Counted from the first letter of the stretch, positions 8,577 to 51,606 are shown. The stretch is 64,000 nucleotides of DNA from an uncultured archaeon (GCA_963810275.1 CAWENF010000021.1:1-64000), one strand, 5' to 3'. Notes: a model not told the origin generated them from the sequence alone. A program made the numbers and translations.

Positions 8577-8594
8577 AGTATATTAAGCTAATGG
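8577..8594 (-). promoter_or_regulatory. TATA-containing promoter element of AOR operon 1
   Basis: AGTATATTAAGCTAATGG, identical to 11111-11128 and about 46 nt upstream of the AOR start; reads TTAATATA on the minus strand. Confidence 0.7.
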
Positions 8595-8720
8595 GTTAAG
8601 GTTAGAATAATTCACGTGATTGAATTCTCTTCCATCTAACTCGGCAATACATCAAAGTAAACATCGATTTAGATGCAACAACTAACCTGCTTTGAAAAAT
8701 TGACAGAAGAAGAGGGATTA

Positions 8721-9218
8721 TTATGTTCCGGCATTGTCCTGGAACAGTTTCTTTATGGCGTTAAGCCTTGCTTTCTGAGCTAAAACGTCACTTGTCACAA
8801 CAGTAATAGCTTCTTCGGGGCACCATTTTACGCATTGTGGACCATCAGGCTTAAACTGGCACAGATCACACACATACACTGTTTTGGTTTCAGGATGCAT
8901 CATCATACAACCGTAGCTGCAAGCCTCGATACACCAGCCACATCCGTTACATTGCTCTTTGTCGACAATGATATTTCCTGTTTCAGGTGACTGCGAAAGC
9001 GCATCTCGGGGGCAAGCTGCGACGCATGCGGGATCTTGGCATTTTCTGCATGTTAAAGCAAGGTTTTTGGTTTGTTTGGATCTGATAACGCGTATACGGG
9101 ATTTGACTGCATTGAAGGTTTTTTCGTGGGTGTAGCTGCAGGCGTACTCGCAGGTTTGGCAGCCGACGCATTTGTCTGAGTCAACAGAGATGAATTTTCG
9201 GTTATGAATAGATACCAT
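8721..9218 (-). CDS. 4x[4Fe-4S] ferredoxin-like subunit of AOR (copy 2)
   Basis: Paralog of 6164..6673 with the same Cys motifs. Confidence 0.9.
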   Translation of the reverse strand: MVSIHNRKFISVDSDKCVGCQTCEYACSYTHEKTFNAVKSRIRVIRSKQTKNLALTCRKCQDPACVAACPRDALSQSPETGNIIVDKEQCNGCGWCIEACSYGCMMMHPETKTVYVCDLCQFKPDGPQCVKWCPEEAITVVTSDVLAQKARLNAIKKLFQDNAGT

Positions 9219-9222
9219 GCTT

Positions 9223-11064
9223 TTAGTTCTCCTTTGCGTATTGTTCTAAACCTAACTCTTTGACGGTAGCTTTTGTGGGAACACCCTGTTTGTCCCAGCC
9301 ACGGGCTTCATAGTAGTCATCAAGCATTAAATCAAGCTCTTCTTGGGTGATAAAGGCACCTTTAGAGGAGCCATCGTCAGGAACGGGTATGTTCATTACT
9401 TTCCACGGAAGGGTGTCGTCTTTGCGGCTGAACCCGGCTTTGAGGCTAAATAGCTTGGCCAAGGTCTGGATCCTGTTGCCTGCCTTTTGCATCTCCTGTG
9501 GTGTAACCTCAAAGCCCGTCACAGCAGTGTAGAGCTTTGCTAAGTCAACGAAATCTTCATCAAAAGTGGTTTTAGCGTTTTTGCAAACTATTAACGAATC
9601 AAGCAGATTGCATATGTCTTCATGATCGCGGACGAGTTTGCCTCTGCCTTTCTCAGCTTTGAGACGGTCAACTGTACCCTTGATGTCAAGTGAATAAACG
9701 CCGCTTCTGCTATGGTCTGCACCACGGAACGAGACTGCTGCGGCTAATGCGGTGGTTTTTAGGCTGCGCAGGTCAAAACCTGTGGCTTCTAAGCCTTTGA
9801 TTTGTACAGCGAACTGCTCACTCTTTTTGCCGATTTTCTCTGCAGCCGCTTTAACTCCATCTGCCAGCGTTTCGCCTATGCCTTCCCGTTTGCCAATTTT
9901 CTCTATTAACTGGATTACTGCGTTTGCGTTGCCGAAGTGGGCTTCTATTCCATCGAGGTCTTCTTTGGTTAGGATGCCTTTTTCGTAGCAGTCCATTACA
10001 AACGCTACGACAACACCTGTACTCATTGCGTCCAGCCCGAAGTAGTTACAGCGTTCTGCAGCTTTAATGATGAAATTGGGTTGGTCAACGCCTACATTTG
10101 GTCCAAAAGCCCAAAGATTGTCGTACTCGAGGCGTGCCATGGTACCTTTGTAGTAACCTTCCTTGATTACTGCTGTGTGTTCGCAACGCATGGCACACGA
10201 GTTGCAAGCAATAATTTTTTGGATAAAATGCTCGTTTAGGAGTTCGGCGCTGATTTTGTCCGCAGTCATGAAATGCGAATATTCAAAGTTCTTTGTGGGA
10301 AGTGCTGATAGGTCGTTGTTTATCATGAGGTTTTGGACTGTGCCCAGTGTTCTGTGTTTCTGGGCTGCAGGTCCTTTCATTCGTTCATGGAAGTCCCTGA
10401 TCATATCGAAGAACTCGTCTGGTTTAGCTATGTCAACATCGTGTGTGCCTCGGACGGCTATGGCTTTGAGATTCTTGCTACCCATAACAGCACCTAAACC
10501 GGTTCTGCCTGCCGCACGGGTCTGGTCGTTTATGATGCATGCGATTTTAGATTGCTTCTCGCCTGCCAAGCCGATTGCAGCGACACGAATGTAGTAGTCA
10601 CCGATTTCCTCTTTGATTGCGTCCTCGGTTTCTCCCGGAGAGCGCCCCCAGAGGACATCTGCGTTTTTTAGTTGAACTGAGTCGTCGTCTATCCACAGGT
10701 AAACGGGTTTTTTGGCTTTGCCAGAAATTATGACTGCGTCATAGCCTGACCGTTTAAGTTCGGTTCCAAATGTTCCGTGGCTAACTGCTTCTGCGACACC
10801 TCCTGTCTGCGGAGACTTCGAGATGAAGGCGTGCCCGTTCCCACCTGTAGGGAACATGGTACCCGAGAGAGGCCCAAGTGCGAGTACAAGCGGGTTTTGG
10901 GGGCTAAGGGGAGCCACATTTGATTTCGAGTTGGACAAGTATAAGTGAAGACCTAAGCCGACTCCGCCGATGAATTTTTTGGCGGTTTCCTGCGGCAGTT
11001 TTTCCGTCTTGGTTTTGCCGGTGTTTAAATCGACATACAAGATTTTTCCTGCGTAGCCGAACAA
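9223..11064 (-). CDS. aor: Tungsten aldehyde:ferredoxin oxidoreductase family protein (copy 2)
   Basis: Close paralog of 6678..8531; TTG at 11064 aligns with the copy 1 start (LFGYAG vs LLGYAG). Confidence 0.93.
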   Translation of the reverse strand: MFGYAGKILYVDLNTGKTKTEKLPQETAKKFIGGVGLGLHLYLSNSKSNVAPLSPQNPLVLALGPLSGTMFPTGGNGHAFISKSPQTGGVAEAVSHGTFGTELKRSGYDAVIISGKAKKPVYLWIDDDSVQLKNADVLWGRSPGETEDAIKEEIGDYYIRVAAIGLAGEKQSKIACIINDQTRAAGRTGLGAVMGSKNLKAIAVRGTHDVDIAKPDEFFDMIRDFHERMKGPAAQKHRTLGTVQNLMINNDLSALPTKNFEYSHFMTADKISAELLNEHFIQKIIACNSCAMRCEHTAVIKEGYYKGTMARLEYDNLWAFGPNVGVDQPNFIIKAAERCNYFGLDAMSTGVVVAFVMDCYEKGILTKEDLDGIEAHFGNANAVIQLIEKIGKREGIGETLADGVKAAAEKIGKKSEQFAVQIKGLEATGFDLRSLKTTALAAAVSFRGADHSRSGVYSLDIKGTVDRLKAEKGRGKLVRDHEDICNLLDSLIVCKNAKTTFDEDFVDLAKLYTAVTGFEVTPQEMQKAGNRIQTLAKLFSLKAGFSRKDDTLPWKVMNIPVPDDGSSKGAFITQEELDLMLDDYYEARGWDKQGVPTKATVKELGLEQYAKEN

Positions 11065-15062: not shown

Positions 15063-15554
15063 TTAGAAGGTAAATAGTCGAATACTATTTTTCGAGTATT
15101 TCATTCCTCCGAATGGGACTATAAGCAACCATATATGGTTGCCCCTAAGAGAGGTGAAATCCCAAAAAAATAGGAAAATGTTTTGAATGATTGGCCAGCC
15201 AAATGTTGCAATAGTCACGCCTATTATTAGCGCTATAATAAATGCCGCAACTATCTGAATTGTCACTGCAACAACGTCAATTATGAAAGCCTTTGTCCAA
15301 CCACAATCAAAGAAATGCCTAATCAAGAACAGATATAGAACAAAATAAATTATCGCACCGATCCATCCTGATACAAAAAAGCCAATTTATATGACAACAG
15401 CATTAAGAATCACAATCCAAAGCGCATAAGTAAATCTAGCTTTTTGGCCTCCTACAAATAGTCTTCCAGCAATCCAAACAAACAAGCTATTAATCGCGAC
15501 AGTAATTATGATGCTAATCAAAAGTGCAGTAACATAAATGATATCAAACTACAT
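15063..15554 (-). pseudogene. Membrane protein pseudogene
   Basis: One hydrophobic frame M*FDIIYV...VVI*IGFF...HFFDCGWTKA with in-frame TAG (15549-15551) and TAA (15387-15389). Confidence 0.6.
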
Positions 15555-15712
15555 AAAAATCAGATCTAATAATCTCGAAAGAAAGCTGTATTTAAATAAG
15601 CATGTATTAATCATTCATTCACTTGAGATTCAAACATTTCTTCATACAATAACGGCAAGTTCCCCACATTATCAATTAAAGTTTTTAAATTGAACCGAAC
15701 AACTTTATTGTA

Positions 15713-39043: not shown

Positions 39044-39721
39044 ATGAATAACTATAGAAGAACCGCAATAATAGTTGGAATATTATTTATCATAGGCACC
39101 ATTGTACTAATCTCCAGCGGAGTCTTCTCAGAATCCATCCACGCCCCAGACTACCTAAACACTGTAGCGGCAAACCAAAACAGCATAAAAACCGCTGTGT
39201 TAATCGAGTTAATTTCCGCCGCGGCCATAGTAGGAATCCCCATCGCACTGTACCCTATTCTAAAGAAGTACAGCCAAACCTTAGCCGTTGGATACCTAAC
39301 GGCAAGAATATTTGAAGTTATCTTTTTAGTTGCAGGAACAGTCATCCTATTAACAATCTTATCCTTAAGCCAGGAATACATTGTAACAACTAGCACATCC
39401 ACTTTTTACAGTGGAGCCGGCGTATTGCTACTAGCAGCCAGAGACTGGTGCGGCATACTCTTAGATTTCCCCTTCGCTATAGGCGCAGTAATCTTGAACT
39501 ATGTCTTCTACAAGACACTGCTTATACCAAAGTGGTTCTCCGTTTGGGGCATCTTCGGAGGTGCATTATGGTTAGCCATAGCGCCCCTTCGGTTATTCGG
39601 AGTAGATAACATTATGATTGAGGTTTTAGCGCTTCCCATAGCAGCTCAAGAAATGGCGCTTGCCGTTTGGCTAATAGTAAAAGGATTTAGGACAGTGACA
39701 AACCATGAACCCAGTACTTGA
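39044..39721 (+). CDS. DUF4386-like membrane protein
   Basis: RRTAIIVGILF, LYPILKK, LIPKW and LAVWLIVKGF. Confidence 0.75.
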   Translation: MNNYRRTAIIVGILFIIGTIVLISSGVFSESIHAPDYLNTVAANQNSIKTAVLIELISAAAIVGIPIALYPILKKYSQTLAVGYLTARIFEVIFLVAGTVILLTILSLSQEYIVTTSTSTFYSGAGVLLLAARDWCGILLDFPFAIGAVILNYVFYKTLLIPKWFSVWGIFGGALWLAIAPLRLFGVDNIMIEVLALPIAAQEMALAVWLIVKGFRTVTNHEPST

Positions 39722-41641: not shown

Positions 41642-41821
41642 AGAAAGTTAGGTTTGGGATGTTATTAGGTTTGTTTGCTACAAGCTGAAGCTACAAAGCA
41701 ATACGTTTGTTTCGGCAACTGGTAGAAAGCATTTTTGGAGACATAGGGTGATGGATAGCAAACATTAGCGGCTGAAACCGCAATCTCTATATTTGCCAAT
41801 GAAACCTTAAAAAAGGCGCAT

Positions 41822-41899
41822 GGGCCCGTGGCTCAGTCAGGCTAGAGCGGAGGACTCTTAATCCTTAGGTCGCGGGTTCAATTCCCGTCGGGCCCGCCA
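41822..41899 (+). tRNA. tRNA-Lys(CTT), CCA encoded; integration target
   Basis: GGGCCCGTGGCTCAG...GAGGACTCTTAATCCTT...GGTTCAATTCCC...GGGCCCGCCA. Confidence 0.93.
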
Positions 41900-41906
41900 T
41901 ACCAGT
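41893..41906 (+). repeat. Left target-site duplication overlapping the tRNA 3' end
   Basis: CCCGCCATACCAGT vs CCCGCCACACCAGT at 50245-50258 (13/14); extendable to 17/18 (41892-41909 vs 50244-50261). Confidence 0.85.
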
Positions 41907-42214
41907 CACACACAAAACAAAATCAATAGCTGGGTCAAATTCGATTTCCTCACCGTCCTAGACACAATTAACGACCAACAGCTAAGTTCAATTTCTGTCG
42001 CTCTAACTAAGCTATTCACAAACCTCGTTCTATAGTAATGGAATAAACGTATTATCAAAAAGAGGTGTCAAATCTATAATTGCCGATATTTTTTGAATAA
42101 GCATAGATATTAAATGTTTTATGGTTTAGGATCGTTATGAGATCGATTACTATGGATTAACTTAAAATTACGCATTTAGAAAAAGTCTAACTTTTTGAAT
42201 TAGCTAAAACAAAT

Positions 42215-42234
42215 ACACCAGTCACACACACAGT
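42215..42234 (+). repeat. Internal partial target copy plus left-end repeat
   Basis: ACACCAGT followed by CACACACACAGT; matches the reverse complement of the right end (CACACACACACGT) apart from one C. Confidence 0.7.
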
Positions 42235-42370
42235 GTATCGTTGTAGTAGTAACCATACAATCACAAAACTGTAAATTGTTACAAACGCTAATTCATATTA
42301 ATTGTTCATAAACAATTTCTATAGAATGTGTTTCTATAGAGGTTAACGATATATAGTAGTGATTGGCTAT

Positions 42371-42523
42371 ATGGGTAAAACAAGCCAAATTGGAGAGAAA
42401 ACAAAAATGTCAAAACACGTTTGCCTTAATGTAAGTGCAACAGGACGAGCGGCATTAGAACAATCAGTTGAGCGTCTAATATCGCAGAACAAAAAAGTTT
42501 TTGACAATCTAGCTAAAAGTTAA
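42371..42523 (+). CDS. 50-aa putative antitoxin of Doc (not in ORF track)
   Basis: Immediately upstream of the Doc gene; C-terminal helix ...ISQNKKVFDNLAKS resembles the 'l..LAk' tail of Doc-partner antitoxins. Confidence 0.65.
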   Translation: MGKTSQIGEKTKMSKHVCLNVSATGRAALEQSVERLISQNKKVFDNLAKS

Positions 42524-42549
42524 AAGCTCAACATCTCACTCTTTTATAT

Positions 42550-43164
42550 ATGGAAATATCGCTAACCGAAGAATGGCTCAAGCAGCTTTACGGTGTATTA
42601 GTCAATTTTTATAGGCGTAGTGAAGACCCAGTAAAGTCAGCCTATCCTTTCCCTGACTTTAATGACGCTATGCTAAACGTTTGTGTTAAAAGACCGCAAA
42701 CCAAAGTTTTTGGGCATGTAATATACCCTCATCCACTTCAGAGAGCAGCGGTTATTATGCATTCTATCGTAAATTTCCATCCGTTTGTTGATGGCAATAA
42801 AAGAATGGCTCTGTTAGCAACATACTACTACTTAATTTGGAACGGTTATACCTTCAATATACCTCGCGATGCTGATGATTTTACGATTATGGTTGCTAAA
42901 GATAAGTTGGGGCTAAATGAGGTGCTTCAATGGCTTGTTAAAAATACTAGCCGCAGTTGGTCAAATGTTGTGAGACAATGGATGTGCCGTCTTAGTGTTG
43001 GTAAAGATGGTGCAGTTCCCACTTCTGATATTTTCGCTGGTGAAGCAACAATAATAATTTTCATGCCACTAACTGGTTTTGCTTTCTTTAGGTGGAAGCT
43101 TGAAGAACATAAGCGGCGAAAGGCTCAAGGTTCAACTGTTGAAAAAGCAATTCATAAAGTCTAA
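42550..43164 (+). CDS. doc: Doc-type Fic-family toxin
   Basis: HPFVDGNKR motif (Doc variant with K), preceded by RP...FG...YP..L..AA. Confidence 0.85.
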   Translation: MEISLTEEWLKQLYGVLVNFYRRSEDPVKSAYPFPDFNDAMLNVCVKRPQTKVFGHVIYPHPLQRAAVIMHSIVNFHPFVDGNKRMALLATYYYLIWNGYTFNIPRDADDFTIMVAKDKLGLNEVLQWLVKNTSRSWSNVVRQWMCRLSVGKDGAVPTSDIFAGEATIIIFMPLTGFAFFRWKLEEHKRRKAQGSTVEKAIHKV

Positions 43165-43217
43165 GTGGCAAGCTGATAATTTAGCTAGTTCTGATTCTAA
43201 CAACTTCCAGATTTTAC

Positions 43218-43817
43218 TTAGATATCCAGAAAAACATTTCCGTAGAAAGTCACCTCTTTCAATATAATGCGTTCTGTATTCTCAAGCGTTGCTTTGAAAG
43301 TAACTTGACCAATGTGATATGTTCCATGCTCAACATTATCAAAATCAGGTAATGCTGATATACTCAGCGGAACGCTGAAGTTCAACTTGTTCAAGCCAGA
43401 AATAACTGGTTGATCATGAAATTTGCGATCAGAATTAAATGCATTATTAAATTCTACAAATGTTCCTTTTTTGAAAAGAGGTTCGTTATCCAGTACAAAT
43501 GTTTCTGTGTCTATTCTTGCAGTTCCAAAATATGGCGTAAATATTATTAGTTCACAATTGAAATCTCCTGAATATACAATTGGGTTGCTTGTATCGCCAC
43601 TCGCATGATCTTGATCGCTTTTTAAAGAAATGTAATCAGGTATTGGAATAATATTAGGTGAATAATCGGATAACTTGTTCTGTAATTCCAGACTTTTCTG
43701 TGCTATTGTATTTGCTTGACTATAATAATAGAAGCCAATACCCGCAACAAGTATGCTTACAATCAAGCTTACAACGCTTATCATGAGTGCAAGATCCACT
43801 GTTTTCGCCTCAGTCAT
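43218..43817 (-). CDS. Membrane-anchored hypothetical protein
   Basis: N-terminal TM, short coil, beta-rich body. Confidence 0.65.
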   Translation of the reverse strand: MTEAKTVDLALMISVVSLIVSILVAGIGFYYYSQANTIAQKSLELQNKLSDYSPNIIPIPDYISLKSDQDHASGDTSNPIVYSGDFNCELIIFTPYFGTARIDTETFVLDNEPLFKKGTFVEFNNAFNSDRKFHDQPVISGLNKLNFSVPLSISALPDFDNVEHGTYHIGQVTFKATLENTERIILKEVTFYGNVFLDI

Positions 43818-43894
43818 GAAGCATTATCTATCTTATTTTCTATATTTAATTTTTTAATTTTTTGATAATGGGCATTTAAAATCTAATCTAAAAG

Positions 43895-44788
43895 TCATAA
43901 TTCTTTAAAATCATAGTTTATCCATTTTGAAAGCCAAGTAATTGTATCTATATCACCTTGGATTATCTCGGCTCGTCCGCTCAGAACTACTAGAGCTTCA
44001 GTTATGGAATTGAGTTGAACTTGCTGTCTATAGGGCAAAGACCCCGTAGATTTAGAAAGCAACTCTTCATAAACACGCAACTGACGAAGCAAATGCTCAG
44101 GACAAATCACCTGTTTGGGTTTTCTAACGACAGAAAACTTCACACCTTCGATTGCATCAGCCCTTCCAGAATCAATCGCGTCCATTACAATTTGAGTAGT
44201 TGAAACTGAATGACTAAAACTAAAAGGCAAAAGCCTAGACAAAAACCCAGTACCCTTCCATGCCCGATTGAACTCTTCAAAATTAGAATTAGTAGTAGCC
44301 GTAATCAATCCAGCCTTAACAGGTTTTTCAGATTTAAACTCCAAATGATAAGATGAAAGATCAACAACGCCTTCCTCAGTCATACTTCTCAAAACCGCTA
44401 TCAGCGTATTTCTTGTGTTTTTGCCATGACTCATGCAATTAGTAAAATCAGGAACAACCAAAAACTTCTTTTCACTATTCGTAACCTTGCCTAAAAAATC
44501 AACCAAATATTTAGGAGTAATATCATTAACATAACTCACTTCCTTAAGCTTAGCTAATGGGGAAAGTAAACGTGTTTTGCCAATGCCAGCTTGCCCAATC
44601 AAAAGAAGAGAAAGCGGTTTAGGGCAAGACTTCAAAAAAGCTGTCTGAACAACCAAATTTTCAATTAACAAAATGGGGTAATCAGAGTGGGTCACTTGCC
44701 CAAAAAAGGTACTCTGCATATCAGGGTTACTTTTAGAGGTAAGTGGGTCACTCTGGCACTTTACGATACCCTTTCTCTGTTTTTTCAT
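43895..44788 (-). CDS. AAA+ ATPase, MCM-related putative replicative helicase
   Basis: Walker A GQAGIGKT, Walker B FLVVPD, LRSMTEEG, sensor-1 LITATT and Arg finger GFLSRL. Confidence 0.7.
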   Translation of the reverse strand: MKKQRKGIVKCQSDPLTSKSNPDMQSTFFGQVTHSDYPILLIENLVVQTAFLKSCPKPLSLLLIGQAGIGKTRLLSPLAKLKEVSYVNDITPKYLVDFLGKVTNSEKKFLVVPDFTNCMSHGKNTRNTLIAVLRSMTEEGVVDLSSYHLEFKSEKPVKAGLITATTNSNFEEFNRAWKGTGFLSRLLPFSFSHSVSTTQIVMDAIDSGRADAIEGVKFSVVRKPKQVICPEHLLRQLRVYEELLSKSTGSLPYRQQVQLNSITEALVVLSGRAEIIQGDIDTITWLSKWINYDFKEL

Positions 44789-45150
44789 TGTAAATCCTTC
44801 CGACTGTAGATGTATCTGAGCCTCACGCTGGGTTCTTCAAACAGTTTATTCCACTCAGAAAGGTGGGAATCTATTCTTGCACGATTAAACTCAACACGCC
44901 GACAATCATCCCCCAAAAGCCACTGTAAAAAGTTAGCCGCTTTCGCTTCTATTGATTGGTTGAGTTCAATGTAGAAGTGTTGCCCTTTGTTTTTGCTGTT
45001 GCAGACTTGGATCGTTTCAACGGTTAGATTGAGCTTCTTGCATGAATGTAGTATTGTTTGGATGTATTGTTTTATCCAGCTTTGGCTTGCCATACAATCT
45101 CTATCGATCTTTAGAAGTTTAGTTTTTGAATTTACGTTTCTTCTTTGCAT
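44785..45150 (-). CDS. Minimal archaeo-eukaryotic primase (AEP)-like protein
   Basis: LKIDRD (DxD), SKNKGQHFYI (SxxGxH) and LLGDD in AEP motif order; stop overlaps the ATPase start. Confidence 0.5.
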   Translation of the reverse strand: MQRRNVNSKTKLLKIDRDCMASQSWIKQYIQTILHSCKKLNLTVETIQVCNSKNKGQHFYIELNQSIEAKAANFLQWLLGDDCRRVEFNRARIDSHLSEWNKLFEEPSVRLRYIYSRKDLQ

Positions 45151-45535
45151 AAGTTAGCACCTTTGAAGGAAGCTCATAGGCTTTCCATCGACTGCGTTTT
45201 CCTACACCTTCCATTTGTCTTGCTTCTATACTGATTAATTCCTGTGTCTTCTCTGCATTTTGTTCGCGTTCAAAAGCTATTCTGATTCTTCCTTTAGGTA
45301 TCCAGCGTTTGAATTTACGATAGACCGTCTGCTGAAAATGAACCACACACCGCTTAGCTAAGTATTTACGTACATCTCTAATAGCACCTTTTTGTGCCAC
45401 TTTATAGTGCATTTCATACTCTTTCACCCCACTTGCACAACCGTCATACCACACACTTGCAATGGTCATGCGATAAACTCTAACAGGCGCTTTTAGAGAA
45501 AAAGAAGGTGGCTGAGCCACTATTTGGTGACTCAT
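45119..45535 (-). CDS. Basic hypothetical protein in the replication operon
   Basis: Overlaps both neighbours; K/R-rich. Confidence 0.65.
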   Translation of the reverse strand: MSHQIVAQPPSFSLKAPVRVYRMTIASVWYDGCASGVKEYEMHYKVAQKGAIRDVRKYLAKRCVVHFQQTVYRKFKRWIPKGRIRIAFEREQNAEKTQELISIEARQMEGVGKRSRWKAYELPSKVLTYAKKKRKFKN

Positions 45536-45876
45536 GTTGGTATCTCCTTTGATTTGGTTGGTTGTGCGTAGAGTACGGTTCTTTGTTCGCCTTTGACATT
45601 TTCTGTGCGTTTTTGTATCTTGACTGTTTTCCCTATCCAGTCATCGCCGTTGGAGCCAAAAGTAGTTACTAGTCTATCGTTGGAAGTGCTGTTTAATGTC
45701 CATCGGTAAGCCTTGCCGTCATGTTTTAGTTTAACTACAATCTGTGTTTGTTCTTTGCCAAATTTGCTTTCTTCTGCCGCTATAATTGAAGGTTGTTCAG
45801 TGATTATCGCTGTCTCTTCTTCTTTTATTTCCGCAGAGTTCAAGAAAGGCTGCTTTATTCTAATGGGAATATTCAA
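45532..45876 (-). CDS. Virus-type OB-fold single-stranded DNA-binding protein (putative)
   Basis: SKFG and LNSTS..RL...FG...DDWIGKTV pattern typical of phage/archaeal-virus SSB-like proteins. Confidence 0.55.
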   Translation of the reverse strand: MNIPIRIKQPFLNSAEIKEEETAIITEQPSIIAAEESKFGKEQTQIVVKLKHDGKAYRWTLNSTSNDRLVTTFGSNGDDWIGKTVKIQKRTENVKGEQRTVLYAQPTKSKEIPT

Positions 45877-46049
45877 AATATTTCGCCTCCCATTAGCTGA
45901 ACGAAACTGGTCAAGGATTTGGAAATCGATTTTCTTTTAAAATCTATTTTGTTTTTGTTTTTTGCTGACATTTTTGTCACACGATAAGGATAGACTTTGA
46001 ATAATTTCACGAGTTTGTGGCAAAAAAACTCAGAATATCTATGTGGAGT

Positions 46050-46107
46050 TGAGAGTAACTCTCAGTCTTAAAATGAATTTTACCATACTATTGAGAGCAA
46101 CTCTCAA
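46050..46107. promoter_or_regulatory. Two palindromic operators TGAGAG-N3-CTCTCA between divergent genes
   Basis: TGAGAGTAACTCTCA (46050-46064) and TTGAGAGCAACTCTCAA (46091-46107). Confidence 0.7.
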
Positions 46108-46126
46108 AAGCTAACAGTTCATAACA

Positions 46127-46960
46127 TTGTGTGAAGGTGGCGAATTGAGCGAGCAAAAAGATATGTCTGATTTAATTAAAGCAGCTCTCGATGAAGGAAC
46201 AAAGGATTCAGCTGAACTCGAGAAAAAGACCGAGGAAATGTGGCTTAAATTCAAGAAATCGCCTTTTCCATCCTCAACTTATTACCGTCACCTTAACAAT
46301 CTCCAAAAAATTCATGAAATAAAAAAAACCAAAATTATTCGTTATGAACTTGTTATAGACAATATAGACTCAAAGATTGAAGATTGTATAAGAGCAATTA
46401 ATAGTTCCAAGAATGAGGAAATATTATCATCGCGACTGTCACAACTTGAAGGTTTGCTGATTAATAAAAAAATTTCAATGTATCCAGATGTGCTGACTTG
46501 TTTAAGCTCGTCTATTGATAATAAATTAATAACAGAAAATTTGGAAACCTTCAAAGTTCTCGTAGATATTTTGTCTCATAAACTGTATTCTACATCAGAA
46601 CCTCTGAATTCCAACGAAGATTACAAAATAAGAGACAATATTTCGCTAAAACTAATTAATTTATTAAAAGACAAATCCTTGGAATATCTGCGTTATTCCC
46701 TTACCCTGTTAGGTTACACTACCAAGAAAGAGGCTGTAGATTTAATATTTCAAAAAATAAACAGCGACCCCTTGAAAGCACTTAACGGTGTTAGCGATTC
46801 TCTTTCATCAGGTTACGCCAGAGCCTTAGCAAAACTTGAAGATTCGAATAATAGGCTTATACAGCAAGGATTTGACCAATTAATAAATTCAGGCGAAGAA
46901 ACTAAAATCAAGGTTGGAAAGTTACTAAGAAAACGAGTGGCAAATGAGGATTTATTTTAA
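46127..46960 (+). CDS. Winged-helix protein with a helical C-terminal domain, putative repressor
   Basis: L.EG....AEL...FPSSTYYRHLNNLQKIHEIKK...YEL wHTH pattern; divergent from the replication operon. Confidence 0.6.
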   Translation: MCEGGELSEQKDMSDLIKAALDEGTKDSAELEKKTEEMWLKFKKSPFPSSTYYRHLNNLQKIHEIKKTKIIRYELVIDNIDSKIEDCIRAINSSKNEEILSSRLSQLEGLLINKKISMYPDVLTCLSSSIDNKLITENLETFKVLVDILSHKLYSTSEPLNSNEDYKIRDNISLKLINLLKDKSLEYLRYSLTLLGYTTKKEAVDLIFQKINSDPLKALNGVSDSLSSGYARALAKLEDSNNRLIQQGFDQLINSGEETKIKVGKLLRKRVANEDLF

Positions 46961-46961
46961 C

Positions 46962-48176
46962 TCACTGGATTAATTTAGATGCAACAGTTTGATAAACTTT
47001 GAAGGGTCGATTGGTTTTAGCGTTTTTACGTAAATAATGCAATGTACTTTTCCCTATGCCTAATTCTTTTGCTTGACTTTGACTTAATCCTATTATTCGC
47101 TTTCTTAAATCCTTATTATCTGTTCTATGTAGGTTTGGTTTTGGCTCGTTAAAATCTAACTTTTTAGTTTTGCCTGATAAGTAACGTGCCAATTCTTGTG
47201 TTTTGCGAAGAATAATTGTATCCCATTTGCAGGTTATGCCTTTGTAATTGGTTCCAATGTTGAAGCGTTCTTGGAAGAGTTTTAGAAAGCTTCTTTTTGC
47301 TTCCTGATCTATGTGGTAGCGGTAATCGTTGCCTAAGAAATAGAAATCCTGCAAATCTAAAACTCCCGATTCAAACGCCTCTAAAACAGTAACATCAGCT
47401 AACCACCTAAAAGGTTCCTGCAAATCATAAACCAGTGACTGCTTAGTCTGGTAGTTACTATATTCATGCAAAAAGCCTATTGAAGGCTCTAATCCTACTG
47501 TGTTTATAGCTTTTCTACAGTAGCCTTCCAGCACACCGTAAGCATAGTTTAGTGTTAGGTTGATGGGGTCGGTTGCATTGCTGTTGTGGCTGCCTGTTGT
47601 TCTGCCTTGAAAATCAAAACACTCAGGAATGACTGATTTTATTGCTTGCCAGTATCTTAGGGTTACTCTGCCTTCTACTGTTCGTATTTGGCTAACTGTT
47701 TTAGCTTGAAGCAGTCTTAGTTGTTCGGTTTTTGCTATTTTTAGGTGCTTGGTTATGTCGTATTTTTCTGCTATCCAGTTTAGAACTTGGATGTTTCGCT
47801 GTATTTTTGCTTCTATGAAGACTTTTGCTATTTGGGTTTGTTTTTCTTTGTTTAGTGAGGCTTGGATTTGTGATAGTTTGGTATCGACTTTTACGGGTGT
47901 AGGTGGCAGAATGCTTGAAATTATTGTTCCATCAAAATCTAGAATAAAGGTTGGTATGTTGTTTTTTGAGAGCCAGTGAAAGGCTTGAAGTGAAATGTAT
48001 CCGCTGTGTCCGTCTATTATTATTGTGTCGTAGGGGATTTTTCTTGGTGTAAAGGTGTAGGTTTCGGTTTTTGTTTTGGGTGTATCTTTTCCGTTTGTTA
48101 TGGTTAGTTCTGATCTGTTTTTGAGGTTGTCTGTTTTTATTTTTATGCCGTATCCGTTTAGTTGTAGCAGATTCAC
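46962..48176 (-). CDS. cas1: Stand-alone Cas1 endonuclease with C-terminal HTH (casposase-like)
   Basis: G.ISLQAFHWL, EGRVTLRYW (E), NLTLNYAY, GLEPSIGFLH (H), SLVYDLQEPFR (D/E); tail AKELGIGKSTLHYLRK; no cas2 or array nearby. Confidence 0.92.
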   Translation of the reverse strand: MNLLQLNGYGIKIKTDNLKNRSELTITNGKDTPKTKTETYTFTPRKIPYDTIIIDGHSGYISLQAFHWLSKNNIPTFILDFDGTIISSILPPTPVKVDTKLSQIQASLNKEKQTQIAKVFIEAKIQRNIQVLNWIAEKYDITKHLKIAKTEQLRLLQAKTVSQIRTVEGRVTLRYWQAIKSVIPECFDFQGRTTGSHNSNATDPINLTLNYAYGVLEGYCRKAINTVGLEPSIGFLHEYSNYQTKQSLVYDLQEPFRWLADVTVLEAFESGVLDLQDFYFLGNDYRYHIDQEAKRSFLKLFQERFNIGTNYKGITCKWDTIILRKTQELARYLSGKTKKLDFNEPKPNLHRTDNKDLRKRIIGLSQSQAKELGIGKSTLHYLRKNAKTNRPFKVYQTVASKLIQ

Positions 48177-48187
48177 TTAACGCACCT

Positions 48188-48259
48188 TTTTGATACCAAT
48201 ATGGTATAATGATAACGCTAATATTAAGGTAGCTATTTTATACTTTTTAGGTATCAAAA
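48188..48259. promoter_or_regulatory. Putative RHH operator in the cas1/RHH divergent promoter
   Basis: Palindrome ATACCA-ATA-TGGTAT (48193-48207) and inverted pair TTTTGATACC (48188) / GGTATCAAAA (48250). Confidence 0.5.
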
Positions 48260-48408
48260 TGGTTAAGGCAATGTCTCTGAGGCTTCCTGATGAAATAGAC
48301 AATAAACTTGAAACCGCAATCAAAAAAGGAAATGCAATAACTAAAACCGAACTAATAAGAAGAGCAATTTCCGAATTTATCGAAAAACATCCAGAAACCT
48401 TCTCCTAA
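48259..48408 (+). CDS. CopG/ribbon-helix-helix DNA-binding protein
   Basis: MSLRLPDEIDNKLE...TKTELIRRAISEFI. Confidence 0.85.
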   Translation: MVKAMSLRLPDEIDNKLETAIKKGNAITKTELIRRAISEFIEKHPETFS

Positions 48409-48902
48409 AAAAGAAATAAGCGAACATGCATTATTCGATTTTCTGCATGTTTTTCGGTTGTTTTATTCTGATTTTTTGCTTGTTAGTGATTTTTTCAATT
48501 GCTTTTCTTGTTCTTTTTGCATGGATTCTTGTTGTTTTATTGTCTTTATGCTCTTTACGGTTGTTAAACATTAAGTTGTTTTTTCTTTGTTTTCTTATTT
48601 ATTTTTGTTCGGTTGATTGTTTCTTGTTCTTTTATGAATTTTGAGATCTGTAACCAATTTTTGGGTTAATGCCTTCCTTCAATCTGTCAAGTGCCTTTAT
48701 GCAAGCAGATTTGATTACATGTCACTTTTTAATTGGTGACAATCTATCTCCTTATGTTTGGAGTTTATGCAACTGCACTCATTTCTTTAACATTGAATAA
48801 GGAATTTGAACTAATAAAGAAAACAGTTGATATCTAATTCGTAACATTTTTTTATTTAAAGGTGATTTCTTTGAAATATACGAATTATCATTTTTCACTT
48901 TT

Positions 48903-50033
48903 TCAACTTTTTTGTTTTATATGGGCTGATATTCCATCCAACTTTATTATAATCTCATTTATTTTACATTCAACAATATCCAGTTTTTCTCCATAATTTA
49001 TATGAAAGAAATATTTTTCATAGGATGATAGATTTCTTATTTGACTTCCCAAATCTCTAAGATTTTCAAAATTAAGAAAATGCCACATATCAGCCGCGTA
49101 GCCAAACTTATAAAAAATATATCCGAAACGCCTTAGGAAATGTTGCACTTTTGCAAACTCACTTCGTTTAAGATAATTTTGAGAAATCATCCATTCATCT
49201 TTGAAAGAGGAGATTGCTTCCAAGGTGATATGTGAAAATGCTACCTCACTCATGACAGGTGGGTCTTTCTTTATTTGTTCGAAAATTTTCTGAGATAACA
49301 TAGCTGATTTTTGAAGTTTGCTTCCGAGTTCATCTGCACATTCTTGTCCCATGTTCAAGTCAATTAATTGAACATCTTCCAAGCTATTTCTAAGATTGAG
49401 CAAAACTCTCTCTATCCCTAACTTCTTTGCGTATCCGCTATTAACTAGACTCAATATCTTTTCGCTTGTACCCATTACGTCATATTTTAGTTGGTTCCAG
49501 TCGGATTGCTCGAGATGATCTGCATAATCAGAGTAAAATAGTTGTGTGTCACTCAGTTGCGCAATAAGATTTAATGCAGATTGCATATTTTTGTTAATTG
49601 TCTCATCATTTTGTTGATTTGAAAAGTTTCGAGTGTAAAGCCGATATAATTGTTCTATCTCATGCGGTTCAAGTTTTCGAGTGATGCTTTGATCACGTGT
49701 ATATGCTCTAAAATCTTGGTAATAAACTGGTTCCTCACCTTTTGGGACATCAATTCTAACTACAGTTTTTGAGCCAATACCGATAAAAGTTACTTTCACA
49801 CGTATTGCTGGCTTGACTTTGTTTCGAGAAATGTTGACAATTTCACGCATGTATTTGTCTTTTTGTATTCCATCAGATAAGTTGTCTAACCCATTGATTC
49901 GTCTGTTCTGGTCAATGCCAATGTAAATTCGACCGTTATTTGAGGTAGCAAACCCAGCAATTGCCTCTGCAATTTCGCTATTAGAGGTAGCTTTTTTCTT
50001 AAATTCGATTTCTTGGCATTCCCAGCTATCCAT
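48903..50033 (-). CDS. Schlafen/AlbA_2 domain protein
   Basis: ECQEIEFKK, IAGFATSNNGRIYIGI, V..I.VPKG..P and Y.R motifs; helical C-terminal domain. Confidence 0.85.
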   Translation of the reverse strand: MDSWECQEIEFKKKATSNSEIAEAIAGFATSNNGRIYIGIDQNRRINGLDNLSDGIQKDKYMREIVNISRNKVKPAIRVKVTFIGIGSKTVVRIDVPKGEEPVYYQDFRAYTRDQSITRKLEPHEIEQLYRLYTRNFSNQQNDETINKNMQSALNLIAQLSDTQLFYSDYADHLEQSDWNQLKYDVMGTSEKILSLVNSGYAKKLGIERVLLNLRNSLEDVQLIDLNMGQECADELGSKLQKSAMLSQKIFEQIKKDPPVMSEVAFSHITLEAISSFKDEWMISQNYLKRSEFAKVQHFLRRFGYIFYKFGYAADMWHFLNFENLRDLGSQIRNLSSYEKYFFHINYGEKLDIVECKINEIIIKLDGISAHIKQKS

Positions 50034-50244
50034 GTCCCTTTTAAGCTGATGAACATACCTAGAATTTTCTTCAGTGGTTGACGTAAATCATGCCCTAACT
50101 AACTTTAGATTAGTTATCCTTTATAATGGTGATTATCAGCTGCGTTTCATTTTTCCATATGATAGCTCGTTTGCCCCTTTTACTAATAAAGGACGTATAT
50201 TGGGTTTTTGGCTTAGAAATTTATTCCAAGGACGTGTGTGTGTG

Positions 50245-50258
50245 CCCGCCACACCAGT
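50245..50258 (+). repeat. Right target-site duplication
   Basis: CCCGCCACACCAGT immediately after the GTGTGTGTGTG end. Confidence 0.85.
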
Positions 50259-50495
50259 CACGAATTTATCTTGCTTCTACCCATCTTTTTTCCTTTCCCA
50301 AACCAAAGACAAGTTAACCTTAGCTTGGTTACAGCCAAAACCTTCGAAAAAAATTTTCTTCTGTATGGGCTGCGTCTTGGTGCGGTCGTTGTAGTGAACC
50401 ATCCTTGTCTGGTAGAAGATCGGTTGGACGGATAGCTTCAAGCGAGGCATGTTCCTCATTCCGCCCAAGAGGCAAACAGACAAAGGAGGGATTCA

Positions 50496-50655: not shown

Positions 50656-51606
50656 TTGGCAGGGCCATCTGATAGAAGTCAAAATTTTGGCGTTTCAAAG
50701 TCCAAAGTCAAATTTGACTTCTCCAAAGTACGCTCCTGCGTCATCCCAATCCTCAAGGGCATAGAGGTCAAAATGTATCCTGCAAAGATAGGCCGAACCC
50801 GTGGATGGAGCAAACAACATGTCGATTACTATGTAAAGAAGCTGGAAAAGGCAGGTTTGATCCGACGGTTGAAGCGGAGCAACTTTGTCGATTATGAGTT
50901 GACTGAGCGAGGTCAAAACTTTCTCATATCATGTGAGGGCGTTATCTTTAGCAGTGGCGTCTTTCGGTTGCATCGGTGTTTTTTCAAGTTTCCTGTGTTG
51001 CGTGAGGGGGTTTATCCTTCGGGTGACTTCAGGCGGATTGAGATGCAGAATTGGACTGCGTTTTTAGGTTTGGAGCAGGGTGTTAAGGTTAGGCATACCA
51101 CTTCCAGCTGGATTGTTCATGTTGAGACGCTGTATGGTCGCAGTCCCGGGGAGCTTATGACTTTGGCTAAGAACTTGGCTGACCGAGTTGCCAAGGGCTT
51201 ATCCAATAAGTATGGCTGCGTTTTGGGTGAGGGGCAGATTAACAAACGTCATGAGCTTGGCGTCGACGACCCAGTTGCAAATCTTTTGAACCGGTACTTT
51301 ACCGTGAGTACTCCAAAGCGGGTTATTGATGATAGCCCAGGAGAAGATGAGGGCGAGCTCGATCATCTTGGGCGAGATGCTGCAGTTGAATATTTGTTGA
51401 TGCCTGAGCGCTTCAAAAAGCTGGAAGGGCAAATAAGCAATGTCCTGTACGATTTGGAGAAGATCTCTGGCAGCCTAACCAAGCTGGACAAAATGGGCTA
51501 TGATTTAGCCAGAGTTGCAGAGGTCCTTTGCAAGCTTGCAGATTCTGAAGGCAGTCAAGACGTGGCGATGGCTTCATCTGATGGAGGTAACAGCTATGTC
51601 TCTTAG
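50656..51606 (+). CDS. MarR/ArsR-like wHTH protein with an uncharacterised C-terminal domain and coiled coil; possible MGE replication protein
   Basis: PAKIGR..GWSKQHV.YYVKKLEKAGLI...YELTERG; FRLH, TTSS and IDDSPG..EGE motifs; start uncertain. Confidence 0.65.
   Translation: MAGPSDRSQNFGVSKSKVKFDFSKVRSCVIPILKGIEVKMYPAKIGRTRGWSKQHVDYYVKKLEKAGLIRRLKRSNFVDYELTERGQNFLISCEGVIFSSGVFRLHRCFFKFPVLREGVYPSGDFRRIEMQNWTAFLGLEQGVKVRHTTSSWIVHVETLYGRSPGELMTLAKNLADRVAKGLSNKYGCVLGEGQINKRHELGVDDPVANLLNRYFTVSTPKRVIDDSPGEDEGELDHLGRDAAVEYLLMPERFKKLEGQISNVLYDLEKISGSLTKLDKMGYDLARVAEVLCKLADSEGSQDVAMASSDGGNSYVS

Follow-up and report, generated by a model that had tools for sequence, protein, structure and literature searches.

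A Cas1-mobilised element of an uncultured archaeon, probably a casposon of a PolB-less lineage with an MCM-fold ATPase module

Introduction

Can a casposon do without its own DNA polymerase? The question is raised by a locus in a 64,000-nucleotide stretch of DNA from an uncultured archaeon (GCA_963810275.1 CAWENF010000021.1:1-64000; this whole stretch is called the window below), where an element of about 8.3 kb next to a tRNA-Lys gene encodes a Cas1-family integrase and no family B DNA polymerase (PolB). The enzyme of CRISPR adaptation is accepted to derive from casposons, a group whose definition, surveys and classification have relied on the cas1-polB gene pair. Both Cas1 and PolB are described as ubiquitous among the casposons characterised so far (PMC9966878), and the universal gene set of family 2 also includes PolB with a helix-turn-helix (HTH), an HNH nuclease and two HTH proteins (PMC9939771). 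The literature that we searched, which did not cover the supplement lists of PMC4779613 and PMC6563490, gave no description of PolB-less casposons or of casposons from Bathyarchaeia. A preliminary description of the locus, made from the sequence alone, had proposed a new casposon class. Our analysis makes it likely that the sequence at window 41907-50244 is an integrated casposon from a PolB-less lineage not described before, in which a module of an MCM-fold ATPase and two small proteins, p138 and p121, replaces PolB. This lineage is a variant derived from family 2 casposons, carrying defence genes as cargo.

Results

An element bounded by a 14-bp duplication at a tRNA gene

The integration target is a tRNA-Lys gene (anticodon CTT, plus strand, 41822-41899), called by ARAGORN and by Rfam (RF00005, 68.9 bits). 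A direct repeat, 41892-41909 against 50244-50261, is identical at 17 of 18 positions, and the casposon proper covers 41907-50244 (8,338 bp). The left copy of the target-site duplication is CCCGCCATACCAGT (41893-41906), delimited by comparison of the repeats and with related elements; the right copy is CCCGCCACACCAGT (50245-50258), and the flank beyond it is that of the empty site found at L112 (L numbers denote related loci). These 14-mers agree at 13 positions, with a single T/C difference. The duplication starts 7 nt inside the tRNA gene, whose last 7 nt belong to it. The extra matching bases beyond the 14-mer are the first CAC of the element and a CAC of the flank, and by analogy with nine related elements 14 bp is the true length. 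The left terminus is a (CA)4 run, CACACACA (41907-41914), with the same CA-run ends in nine related bounded elements, and the right terminus is the TG run GTGTGTGTGTG (50234-50244), read from the sequence as the reverse complement of (CA)5 plus C. Both the repeat around some 8.3 kb and the short inverted ends noticed in the preliminary description are therefore borne out.

Relatives were gathered by a scan of one genome per species (77 loci; the best 80 of 135 relatives among 153 candidate stretches). To find boundaries, every CA run in 101 loci was paired with the TG runs 2-20 kb downstream. In ten of the resulting 365 pairs the adjoining 14-mers differ at one position at most; no pair matched when the 14-mers were moved outward by 15, 30, 45 or 60 nt, and the chance expectation is 6e-5. 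The ten bounded units (window, L002, L005, L011, L012, L015, L155, L172, L186 and L188) are 8,338-12,814 bp long, the nine relatives measuring 8.4-12.8 kb. The 14-bp duplication is perfect in all nine related elements, and CA-run termini are found in all ten. Terminal inverted repeats reach 65 nt in L002, where they are perfect, at least 73 nt in L172 and about 40 nt in L005, while the CA run is the sole end sequence common to the remaining units, the window's included.

Read in the sense of the tRNA, all ten duplications follow the pattern C[GCT]C[AG]CCA (C-N-C-R-CCA) plus 7 variable nt. Six of the ten begin with CGCA, and the 14-bp duplication of the Methanosarcina mazei casposon likewise has CGCA at its 5' end (PMC6977970). 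As the repeat is always exactly 14 bp and its last 7 nt are different at every site, it behaves as a target-site duplication and not as an attachment (att) core borne by the element. Four units adjoin tRNAs called by ARAGORN (Lys, Pro, Gly and one with an odd anticodon). No full tRNA was found by Rfam at the insertion sites of L003, L005, L011, L012, L013, L014 and L015, nor by ARAGORN at those of L155 and L172; the sites without a full tRNA show only sequence resembling a tRNA 3' half.

At L112, in a genome of the same genus, tRNA-Lys is followed directly by the right-flank sequence of the window (33 of 38 nt, blastn). Judged by this sequence match it is the empty site, and its junction fits the proposed duplication, as the preliminary description called for. 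The element is missing from all 12 tRNA-Lys sites examined in the same genus. It was the tRNA that led to the empty site; a search by way of the right flank was confounded by a multi-copy open reading frame (ORF) of 316 aa and by the paralogous PAS-kinase family gene next to it. Two elements stand in tandem at one site in L011 (1964-16512; 8,615 and 5,920 bp, the second with a truncated Cas1), and in L002 a further right end, flanked by a degenerate duplication, lies inside the element (15499-15565), 1.6 kb before its true right end. Tandem insertion at one site has been described for Methanosarcina casposons (PMC4779613).

The integrase is a casposase of family 2 type

The integrase gene (46962-48176, minus strand) encodes a Cas1-family protein of 404 aa with a C-terminal HTH, identified by Pfam (PF01867, 1.6e-52), by PDB search and by its place in a tree, and it is the only Cas1 in the 2.26-Mb host assembly (28 contigs, 92.6% complete). 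Its best solved relative is 6opm_A (E 8.1e-82, residues 1-396), the best CRISPR Cas1 coming next at 1.5e-25. Entry 6OPM is named in the paper on the structure of the M. mazei casposase, which gives E162, H232 and E247 as the active-site residues (PMC6977970), and E168, H237 and E254 of the window protein align with these. Residues 352-403 match an HTH tail that is also borne by family 2 PolBs; a C-terminal HTH on the casposase is a family 2 feature (PMC9939771).

The Cas1 tree holds 71 proteins of 98 Cas1-like ORFs and was made by a quick search with support from the Shimodaira-Hasegawa-like approximate likelihood ratio test (SH-aLRT); truncated ORFs (below 365 aa in clade loci, below 390 aa elsewhere), second copies per locus and 17 of 30 CRISPR-type loci were left out. 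A branch with a support of 98 separates the CRISPR-type Cas1 proteins of the same archaeal class, 13 in number, from the rest. The window and 14 Bathyarchaeial loci form a clade of 15 rows (support 100) on a long branch. It is placed among casposases of Methanosarcinales, DPANN archaea and Thermoplasmatota, with L017 (in which PolB is present), L018 and Thermoplasmata elements as successive sisters. On this tree the clade is nested in family-2-type casposases, which argues for a derived variant and not for a deep new class. The Cas1 thus falls outside the CRISPR clades, and what is left of the new class first proposed is a Cas1 element without PolB, its depth having been overestimated.

No PolB, second recombinase or CRISPR parts found

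A casposon-PolB profile was built from 24 PolBs of family 2 casposons, one of them checked by Pfam. It matched the PolB body in 40 of 52 loci outside the clade, and in none of the 26 clade loci, window included, where the only matches are to the C-terminal HTH on the casposase itself. No PolB body was matched in 80 metagenome loci either, the only matches lying at positions 775-887 of the hidden Markov model (HMM), that is, in the C-terminal HTH tail. A query with cellular-type PolB returned nothing in the ten bounded elements, and no casposon PolB was found elsewhere in the genome of the window. The window element has ten ORFs of at least 72 aa, the largest open frame being 404 aa. Across the ten bounded units the largest frames range from 404 to 659 aa; those above 500 aa are three TIR or DUF4365 proteins and the 659-aa frame of L186, which has no Pfam family. 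PolB genes do occur near Cas1 in L002 and L013, but they are of cellular type and lie outside the bounded elements (L013, PF00136, 2.6e-49).

No integrase, transposase, Cas2 or polymerase family was found in the ORFs of the window element scanned down to 50 aa, no HNH family in any of its ORFs, and no recombinase family in the open frames of at least 230 aa of the ten bounded elements. A split integrase of SSV type at the ends of the window element was considered and rejected, the boundary ORFs (50074-50394 and 41906-42058) being without any family. Cas2 (PF09827) had no match in the 92.6%-complete genome, and a k-mer scan of the assembly found no interspaced-repeat array. Within the methods used, then, the earlier picture of a solo Cas1 with its catalytic residues and C-terminal HTH, and with neither cas2, array, integrase, transposase nor PolB, proved accurate, and the relatives share the lack of polB and of an integrase.

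A conserved module in place of PolB

Four genes of the element form an operon on the minus strand, running p114 (45532-45876), p138 (45119-45535), p121 (44785-45150) and ATPase (43895-44788). Profiles of p121, p138 and the ATPase match the window and 11-12 clade loci, with no match in L017 or L022-L078; the module and PolB never co-occur. The tight linkage of these three genes in the place of PolB suggests, to judge by fold and context, that PolB was replaced and not merely lost. An independent set of loci was collected through p121 in metagenome contigs (the best 80 of 335 relatives among 507 stretches). Where at least 4.5 kb upstream was available, 27 of 28 loci have the casposase, divergent and 2-3.5 kb away, so that the linkage of cas1 to the same module genes, a search for which had been suggested at the start, is real; the ATPase is present in 21 of 30 loci with enough flank.

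The ATPase (297 aa) has an AAA+ core of MCM fold without the MCM N-terminal domain, as modelled by AlphaFold2 (AF2) with a mean predicted local distance difference test (pLDDT) of 92.6. All 49 rows listed in the Foldseek search against the PDB are MCM (E 1.6e-7 to 1.4e-5; TM-score on the query, TMq, 0.5-0.6), the best being 8q67_A (E 1.6e-7, prob 1.00, TMq 0.52). An L-S-R stretch presumably corresponds to the MCM arginine-finger motif. The family is large, with 1064 representatives at 50% identity, and several of its members touch generic AAA lid families.

The p121 protein is a candidate replication initiator, primase-like or Rep-like, on the evidence of alignment, AF2 and Foldseek. Its model (pLDDT 86) has a ferredoxin/RRM-like beta-alpha-beta-beta-alpha fold, and the residues D16, D18, G56, H58, D81, D82, R85 and R92 are invariant. 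We take D16/D18, H58 and D81/D82 to follow the order of the D-x-D, histidine and aspartate motifs of archaeo-eukaryotic primases (AEP). The best matches overall, in BFVD, are uncharacterised small proteins of archaeal filamentous viruses and other archaeal viruses (E 3.7e-5, TMq 0.64).

The gene for p138, a protein with a basic tail, lies directly upstream of p121 and overlaps it in the +1 frame in nine of nine loci (window, L002, L003, L005, L006, L010, L011, L014 and L015), the ATG of p121 falling inside the conserved basic-tail codons of p138 (overlap 45119-45150 in the window). As a stop in the p121 frame precedes this conserved ATG by one or two codons in six of the nine (window, L002, L003, L006, L010 and L014), the two are read as overlapping genes, p121 having its own start, and a programmed frameshift joining them was rejected. 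A single-frame form of 279 aa, with a divergent first half, exists in L008. The overlap, as read from the sequences, suggests translational coupling of two subunits. The complex model of p138 and p121 has an interaction prediction score from aligned errors (ipSAE) of 0.80 (runs 0.79-0.81), against 0.00 for the best control, with a partner pLDDT of at least 78 and at least 92% contact agreement between runs; its mark is reached by 58 of 80 solved complexes and by 2 of 110 mismatched pairs. The modelled interface involves the invariant stretches KLFE (p121) and FERE (p138). A heterodimer is thus plausible on the model, which speaks of pairing and implies no function.

For p114, encoded at the start of the operon, there are only three close homologues, and no Pfam or NCBIfam family, no PHROG of known function and no PDB sequence match. 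Searches of the ESM Atlas with p114 and p138 gave only unnamed or chance-level clusters (for p114, unnamed viral ones). Nothing credible was found for p121, p138 and the ATPase among PDB sequences, they had no match in phage and plasmid collections, and 41 pattern matches in IMG/VR viral contigs included no relative.

Two variations on the module may be recorded here. In one sub-variant (L152, L167, L169, L171, L177, L185, L188, L198 and L202) the casposase is accompanied by p138 and p121, and the available flanks contain no MCM-like ATPase; the genes after p121 there belong to no known family. An OB-fold protein (PF01336, 1.2e-6) is encoded directly after p121 in L172 (6896-7630), the module's only hint of a partner binding single-stranded DNA.

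A proposed mechanism

By analogy with the M. mazei enzyme in vitro, the casposase would join the 3' ends of the element to a target that it would cut with a 14-bp stagger, at C-N-C-R-CCA plus 7 nt at the 3' end of a tRNA gene. The models and the gene context lead us to infer that the ATPase/p138/p121 module acts in replication. The p138-p121 heterodimer would be the replication initiator, either primase-polymerase-like or a Rep-like nickase, and the MCM-like ATPase would be the helicase of the element. DNA synthesis would then be primed and unwound by the element itself, and carried out by p121 or by a host polymerase; replication like that of a plasmid or virus with the latter, as first proposed, is likewise a conjecture. 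In this way the module would stand in for the PolB of classical casposons as a non-orthologous replacement.

Competing explanations

A number of observations weigh against a PolB-less casposon lineage with a substitute replication module. The Cas1 tree is a quick-search tree without reference sequences of casposon families 1, 3 and 4. The inverted repeat of the window element is the CA run only (8-10 nt), its duplication has one mismatch and it is single-copy in its genome, so that it may be an old copy or one unable to move. In X1, the sole one of three sequencing runs (one study) that contains the element, neither excised nor circular nor empty forms turned up, and the excised junctions looked for since the preliminary description thus did not appear; X1 holds 0.17 of the sampled element words, as contigs, one of which spans the left junction (41753-41989), and no RNA data set containing the element was listed. 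The module itself has gaps among the 15 clade rows of the tree, being absent from L007, L012 and L021, reduced to a p121 remnant in L013 and without the ATPase in L009, and the ATPase is missing from 9 of 30 metagenome loci.

The assignments of the module proteins are open to similar objections. Some 55 residues precede the Walker A strand of the ATPase, leaving out the N-terminal OB-fold/zinc domain of MCM, the window protein matches no Pfam MCM family at E up to 0.1, and among 70 family members checked 3 touch MCM_lid and 4 touch TniB. For p121 there are 644 homologues and no Pfam match. Its top PDB matches by Foldseek are AEP enzymes (the LigD polymerase domain and CAPP Prim-Pol), with E values of 0.03-0.1 and TM scores of 0.3-0.4. 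Rep proteins of CRESS viruses (circular Rep-encoding single-stranded DNA viruses) come up in BFVD near E 0.01, and HUH Rep proteins score similarly there. Of the labels that the operon was first given, MCM-like therefore stands (Foldseek E 1.6e-7), AEP-like is weakly supported, and SSB-like (single-stranded-DNA-binding) is unsupported, p114 having no match of that kind.

The ATPase and its partners might instead be accessory factors of transposition, engaged in target choice or regulation like TnsC, MuB, IstB and TniB, or else a carried defence system, and the element a plain cut-and-paste casposon living on host replication. Site choice in other transposons is often the task of an AAA+ partner, and this element family is strictly site-specific. 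The contacts with TniB (best E 3.3e-4) and with AAA lids would fit such a role, the weak fold assignment of p121 leaves room for it, and the other variable genes identified in these elements all look like defence genes. We nevertheless regard this explanation as rather unlikely, since no TnsC, IstB or MuB is among the Foldseek matches listed, all 49 of them MCM helicases, and the M. mazei casposase is site-specific in vitro by itself, with no partner (PMC6977970). Moreover, the module sits where PolB would be in a family-2-type element, never together with it, and in L172 it is joined by an OB-fold protein.

A decayed, non-autonomous family 2 casposon, from which PolB was deleted and which is dead or mobilised in trans, with the neighbouring genes as passengers, would account for the minimal inverted repeat, the mismatch and the single copy of the window element. 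Fragmented and inactive casposons are known (PMC4779613), and L013 looks like a remnant (4,030 bp, 3 mismatches, a p121 fragment). Decay of one copy is nevertheless improbable as the general explanation, because the loss of PolB is lineage-wide (0 of 26 loci in a clade with a support of 100), the casposases of about 400 aa are intact, nine duplications are perfect and three elements have long inverted repeats. The replacement genes, too, are conserved and linked to the casposase in 27 of 28 independently found loci, and the genome of the window has no casposon PolB elsewhere that could act in trans. The repeats could also be the attL and attR of a plasmid or virus with a tyrosine recombinase, whose integrase was lost or split and for which Cas1 is a passenger. 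The 3' ends of tRNA genes are the classic targets of such integrases. They are shared between such elements and casposons in Methanosarcina (PMC4779613). This we hold to be very improbable, as no integrase family occurs in the frames of at least 230 aa of ten elements or in the small ORFs crossing the ends of the window element, the repeat is always 14 bp with its last 7 nt different per site, and all ten elements have inverted CA-run termini. We therefore keep to a PolB-less casposon carrying a replacement module as the likely reading.

Cargo, element ends and neighbouring genes

The remaining genes of the window element include its cargo. At its left end a Fic/Doc-family, toxin-like protein is encoded on the plus strand (42550-43164; PF02661 3e-14, TIGR01550 1.7e-10, PHROG Doc-like toxin 7e-19), followed on the minus strand by a 199-aa protein with a hydrophobic N-terminal stretch, seen by eye (43218-43817), which has no family and no relative in the 77 loci. 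The p277 gene (46127-46960, plus strand) has no family and homologues only in the two closest elements, L002 and L003. A ribbon-helix-helix (RHH) protein, CopG/VapB-like (48190-48408, plus strand; PF01402 4e-6), precedes a Schlafen/AlbA_2-domain protein of 376 aa (48903-50033, minus strand; PF04326 1.1e-16) in a variable slot beside the casposase. This slot is filled with defence or toxin genes in the relatives: OLD-TOPRIM and HEPN in L002 (OLD-TOPRIM at 8590-9744), TIR in L005 (7333-8910), DUF4365 in L015, a DarT-Macro fusion in L155 (2386-3624), SIR2 in L172 (1771-2823), a CAP12/Pycsar-type TIR in L188 (4853-6379), and HerA-NurA in L004 (2606-6332, by Pfam) and, as homologues found by clustering, in L009. 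The slot would thus hold exchangeable defence or toxin genes, in the window presumably the RHH and Schlafen/AlbA_2 genes, with Fic/Doc at the other end.

The ends of the elements have a structure of their own. A subterminal motif like the 3' half of a tRNA, with a second short CA run behind it, lies at 41932-41955 and is kept at one end in L015, the second element of L011, L012, L188 and L155. From the outside in, the order is CA run, 15-25 nt, a T-loop and acceptor-like stretch (GGTTCAAAT ... C-N-C-A-CCA), 7 nt and the second CA run, as found at window 41907-41970, L015 3337-3410, L012 8990-9059, L188 4685-4755 and L011 10593-10650, and at both ends in L155. This nested arrangement copies the pattern of target plus duplication inside the element end, and its tRNA-half motif is possibly the footprint of serial insertion, a captured flank or a functional landing pad. 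Ends of another type, with the palindrome GGGGA-N-GAATCCCC, are present at both ends of L172 and at the right end of L188.

Outside the element, the 316-aa ORF to its right (50656-51606) has weak winged-helix matches only. It occurs in several copies per genome in genomes of the same genus, with 77-86% DNA identity and often at contig ends, and is probably an unclassified insertion element. A DUF4386 protein is encoded 2 kb to the left of the tRNA gene (39044-39721). It is homologous to that of L012 2540-3244, the gene directly upstream of the casposase in L012, a clade element with host-like genes and without the MCM/p121 module.

Discussion

The closest known systems are the family 2 casposons, such as AciBoo-C1 of Aciduliprofundum boonei and the M. 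mazei casposons at tRNA-Leu. The likeness extends to a casposase with a C-terminal HTH, matching the M. mazei enzyme over its full length, to insertion at tRNA 3' ends with a 14-bp duplication often starting CGCA, to tandem insertion at one site (L011 here; Methanosarcina, PMC4779613) and to nuclease and defence-like cargo. The window element differs in having the ATPase, p138 and p121 instead of PolB, no HNH found and only an RHH protein, and in its simple CA-repeat termini and the motif like a tRNA 3' half at one end; the duplication covers 7 nt of the tRNA here and a reported 4 nt in M. mazei.

Integrative archaeal plasmids and viruses with MCM-type or primase-helicase genes, for example MetMaz1FA1A3-E1 (PMC4779613), likewise combine a helicase-type AAA+ ATPase, a small candidate initiator beside it, tRNA insertion and the lack of a polymerase. 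They use tyrosine recombinases and att sites, however, where this lineage has a Cas1 casposase and a target-site duplication, and the ATPase here, a core of 270-300 aa, lacks the N-terminal domain of MCM. Krupovic et al. (2010) reportedly described MCM genes hitch-hiking on mobile elements. Pipolins and self-synthesizing defence platforms (PMC11551731) resemble the lineage in having a small core for mobility and replication beside an exchangeable defence slot, filled in this family with TIR, SIR2, DarT-Macro, OLD-TOPRIM, HEPN, HerA-NurA, Schlafen and Fic. Pipolins are defined, though, by a primer-independent PolB and tyrosine recombinases, both absent from this casposon family. With the Cas1-Cas2 adaptation module of CRISPR the element shares an integrase of Cas1 fold, the same catalytic residues and a target duplication of fixed length; the differences are that its genome lacks Cas2 and an array, that its Cas1 lies outside the CRISPR Cas1 of the same class, and that a whole 8-kb element plays the part of the spacer.

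Taken together, the data lead us to a broader picture, which we offer as tentative though quite possible. Casposons would not be bound to PolB, and a large unnamed archaeal family, with hundreds of members in sediment and soil metagenomes, mostly of Bathyarchaeia, would have arisen from family 2. It would have swapped PolB for a p138-p121 initiator, representing a new class of small-protein fold shared with archaeal filamentous viruses, and a minimal MCM, and it would serve as a site-specific shuttle of defence genes. The tRNA-like copy at the element end may give each insertion a fresh landing site and so build tandem arrays, much as CRISPR arrays grow at the leader-repeat junction.

The lineage is abundant, has clean boundaries and is widespread in archaea, and surveys built on the cas1-polB pair would miss it altogether. 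It extends the host range of casposons to Bathyarchaeia and adds p121 and p138, two small proteins of a new kind with relatives by fold among uncharacterised proteins of archaeal viruses. How the casposase recognises its target can be tested directly in vitro, given a duplication that is strictly 14 bp long and placed at C-N-C-R-CCA, and the variable slot beside the casposase is a ready catalogue of archaeal defence genes. For the biology of casposons, the finding would mean that the Cas1 integration machinery can combine with a different replication module.

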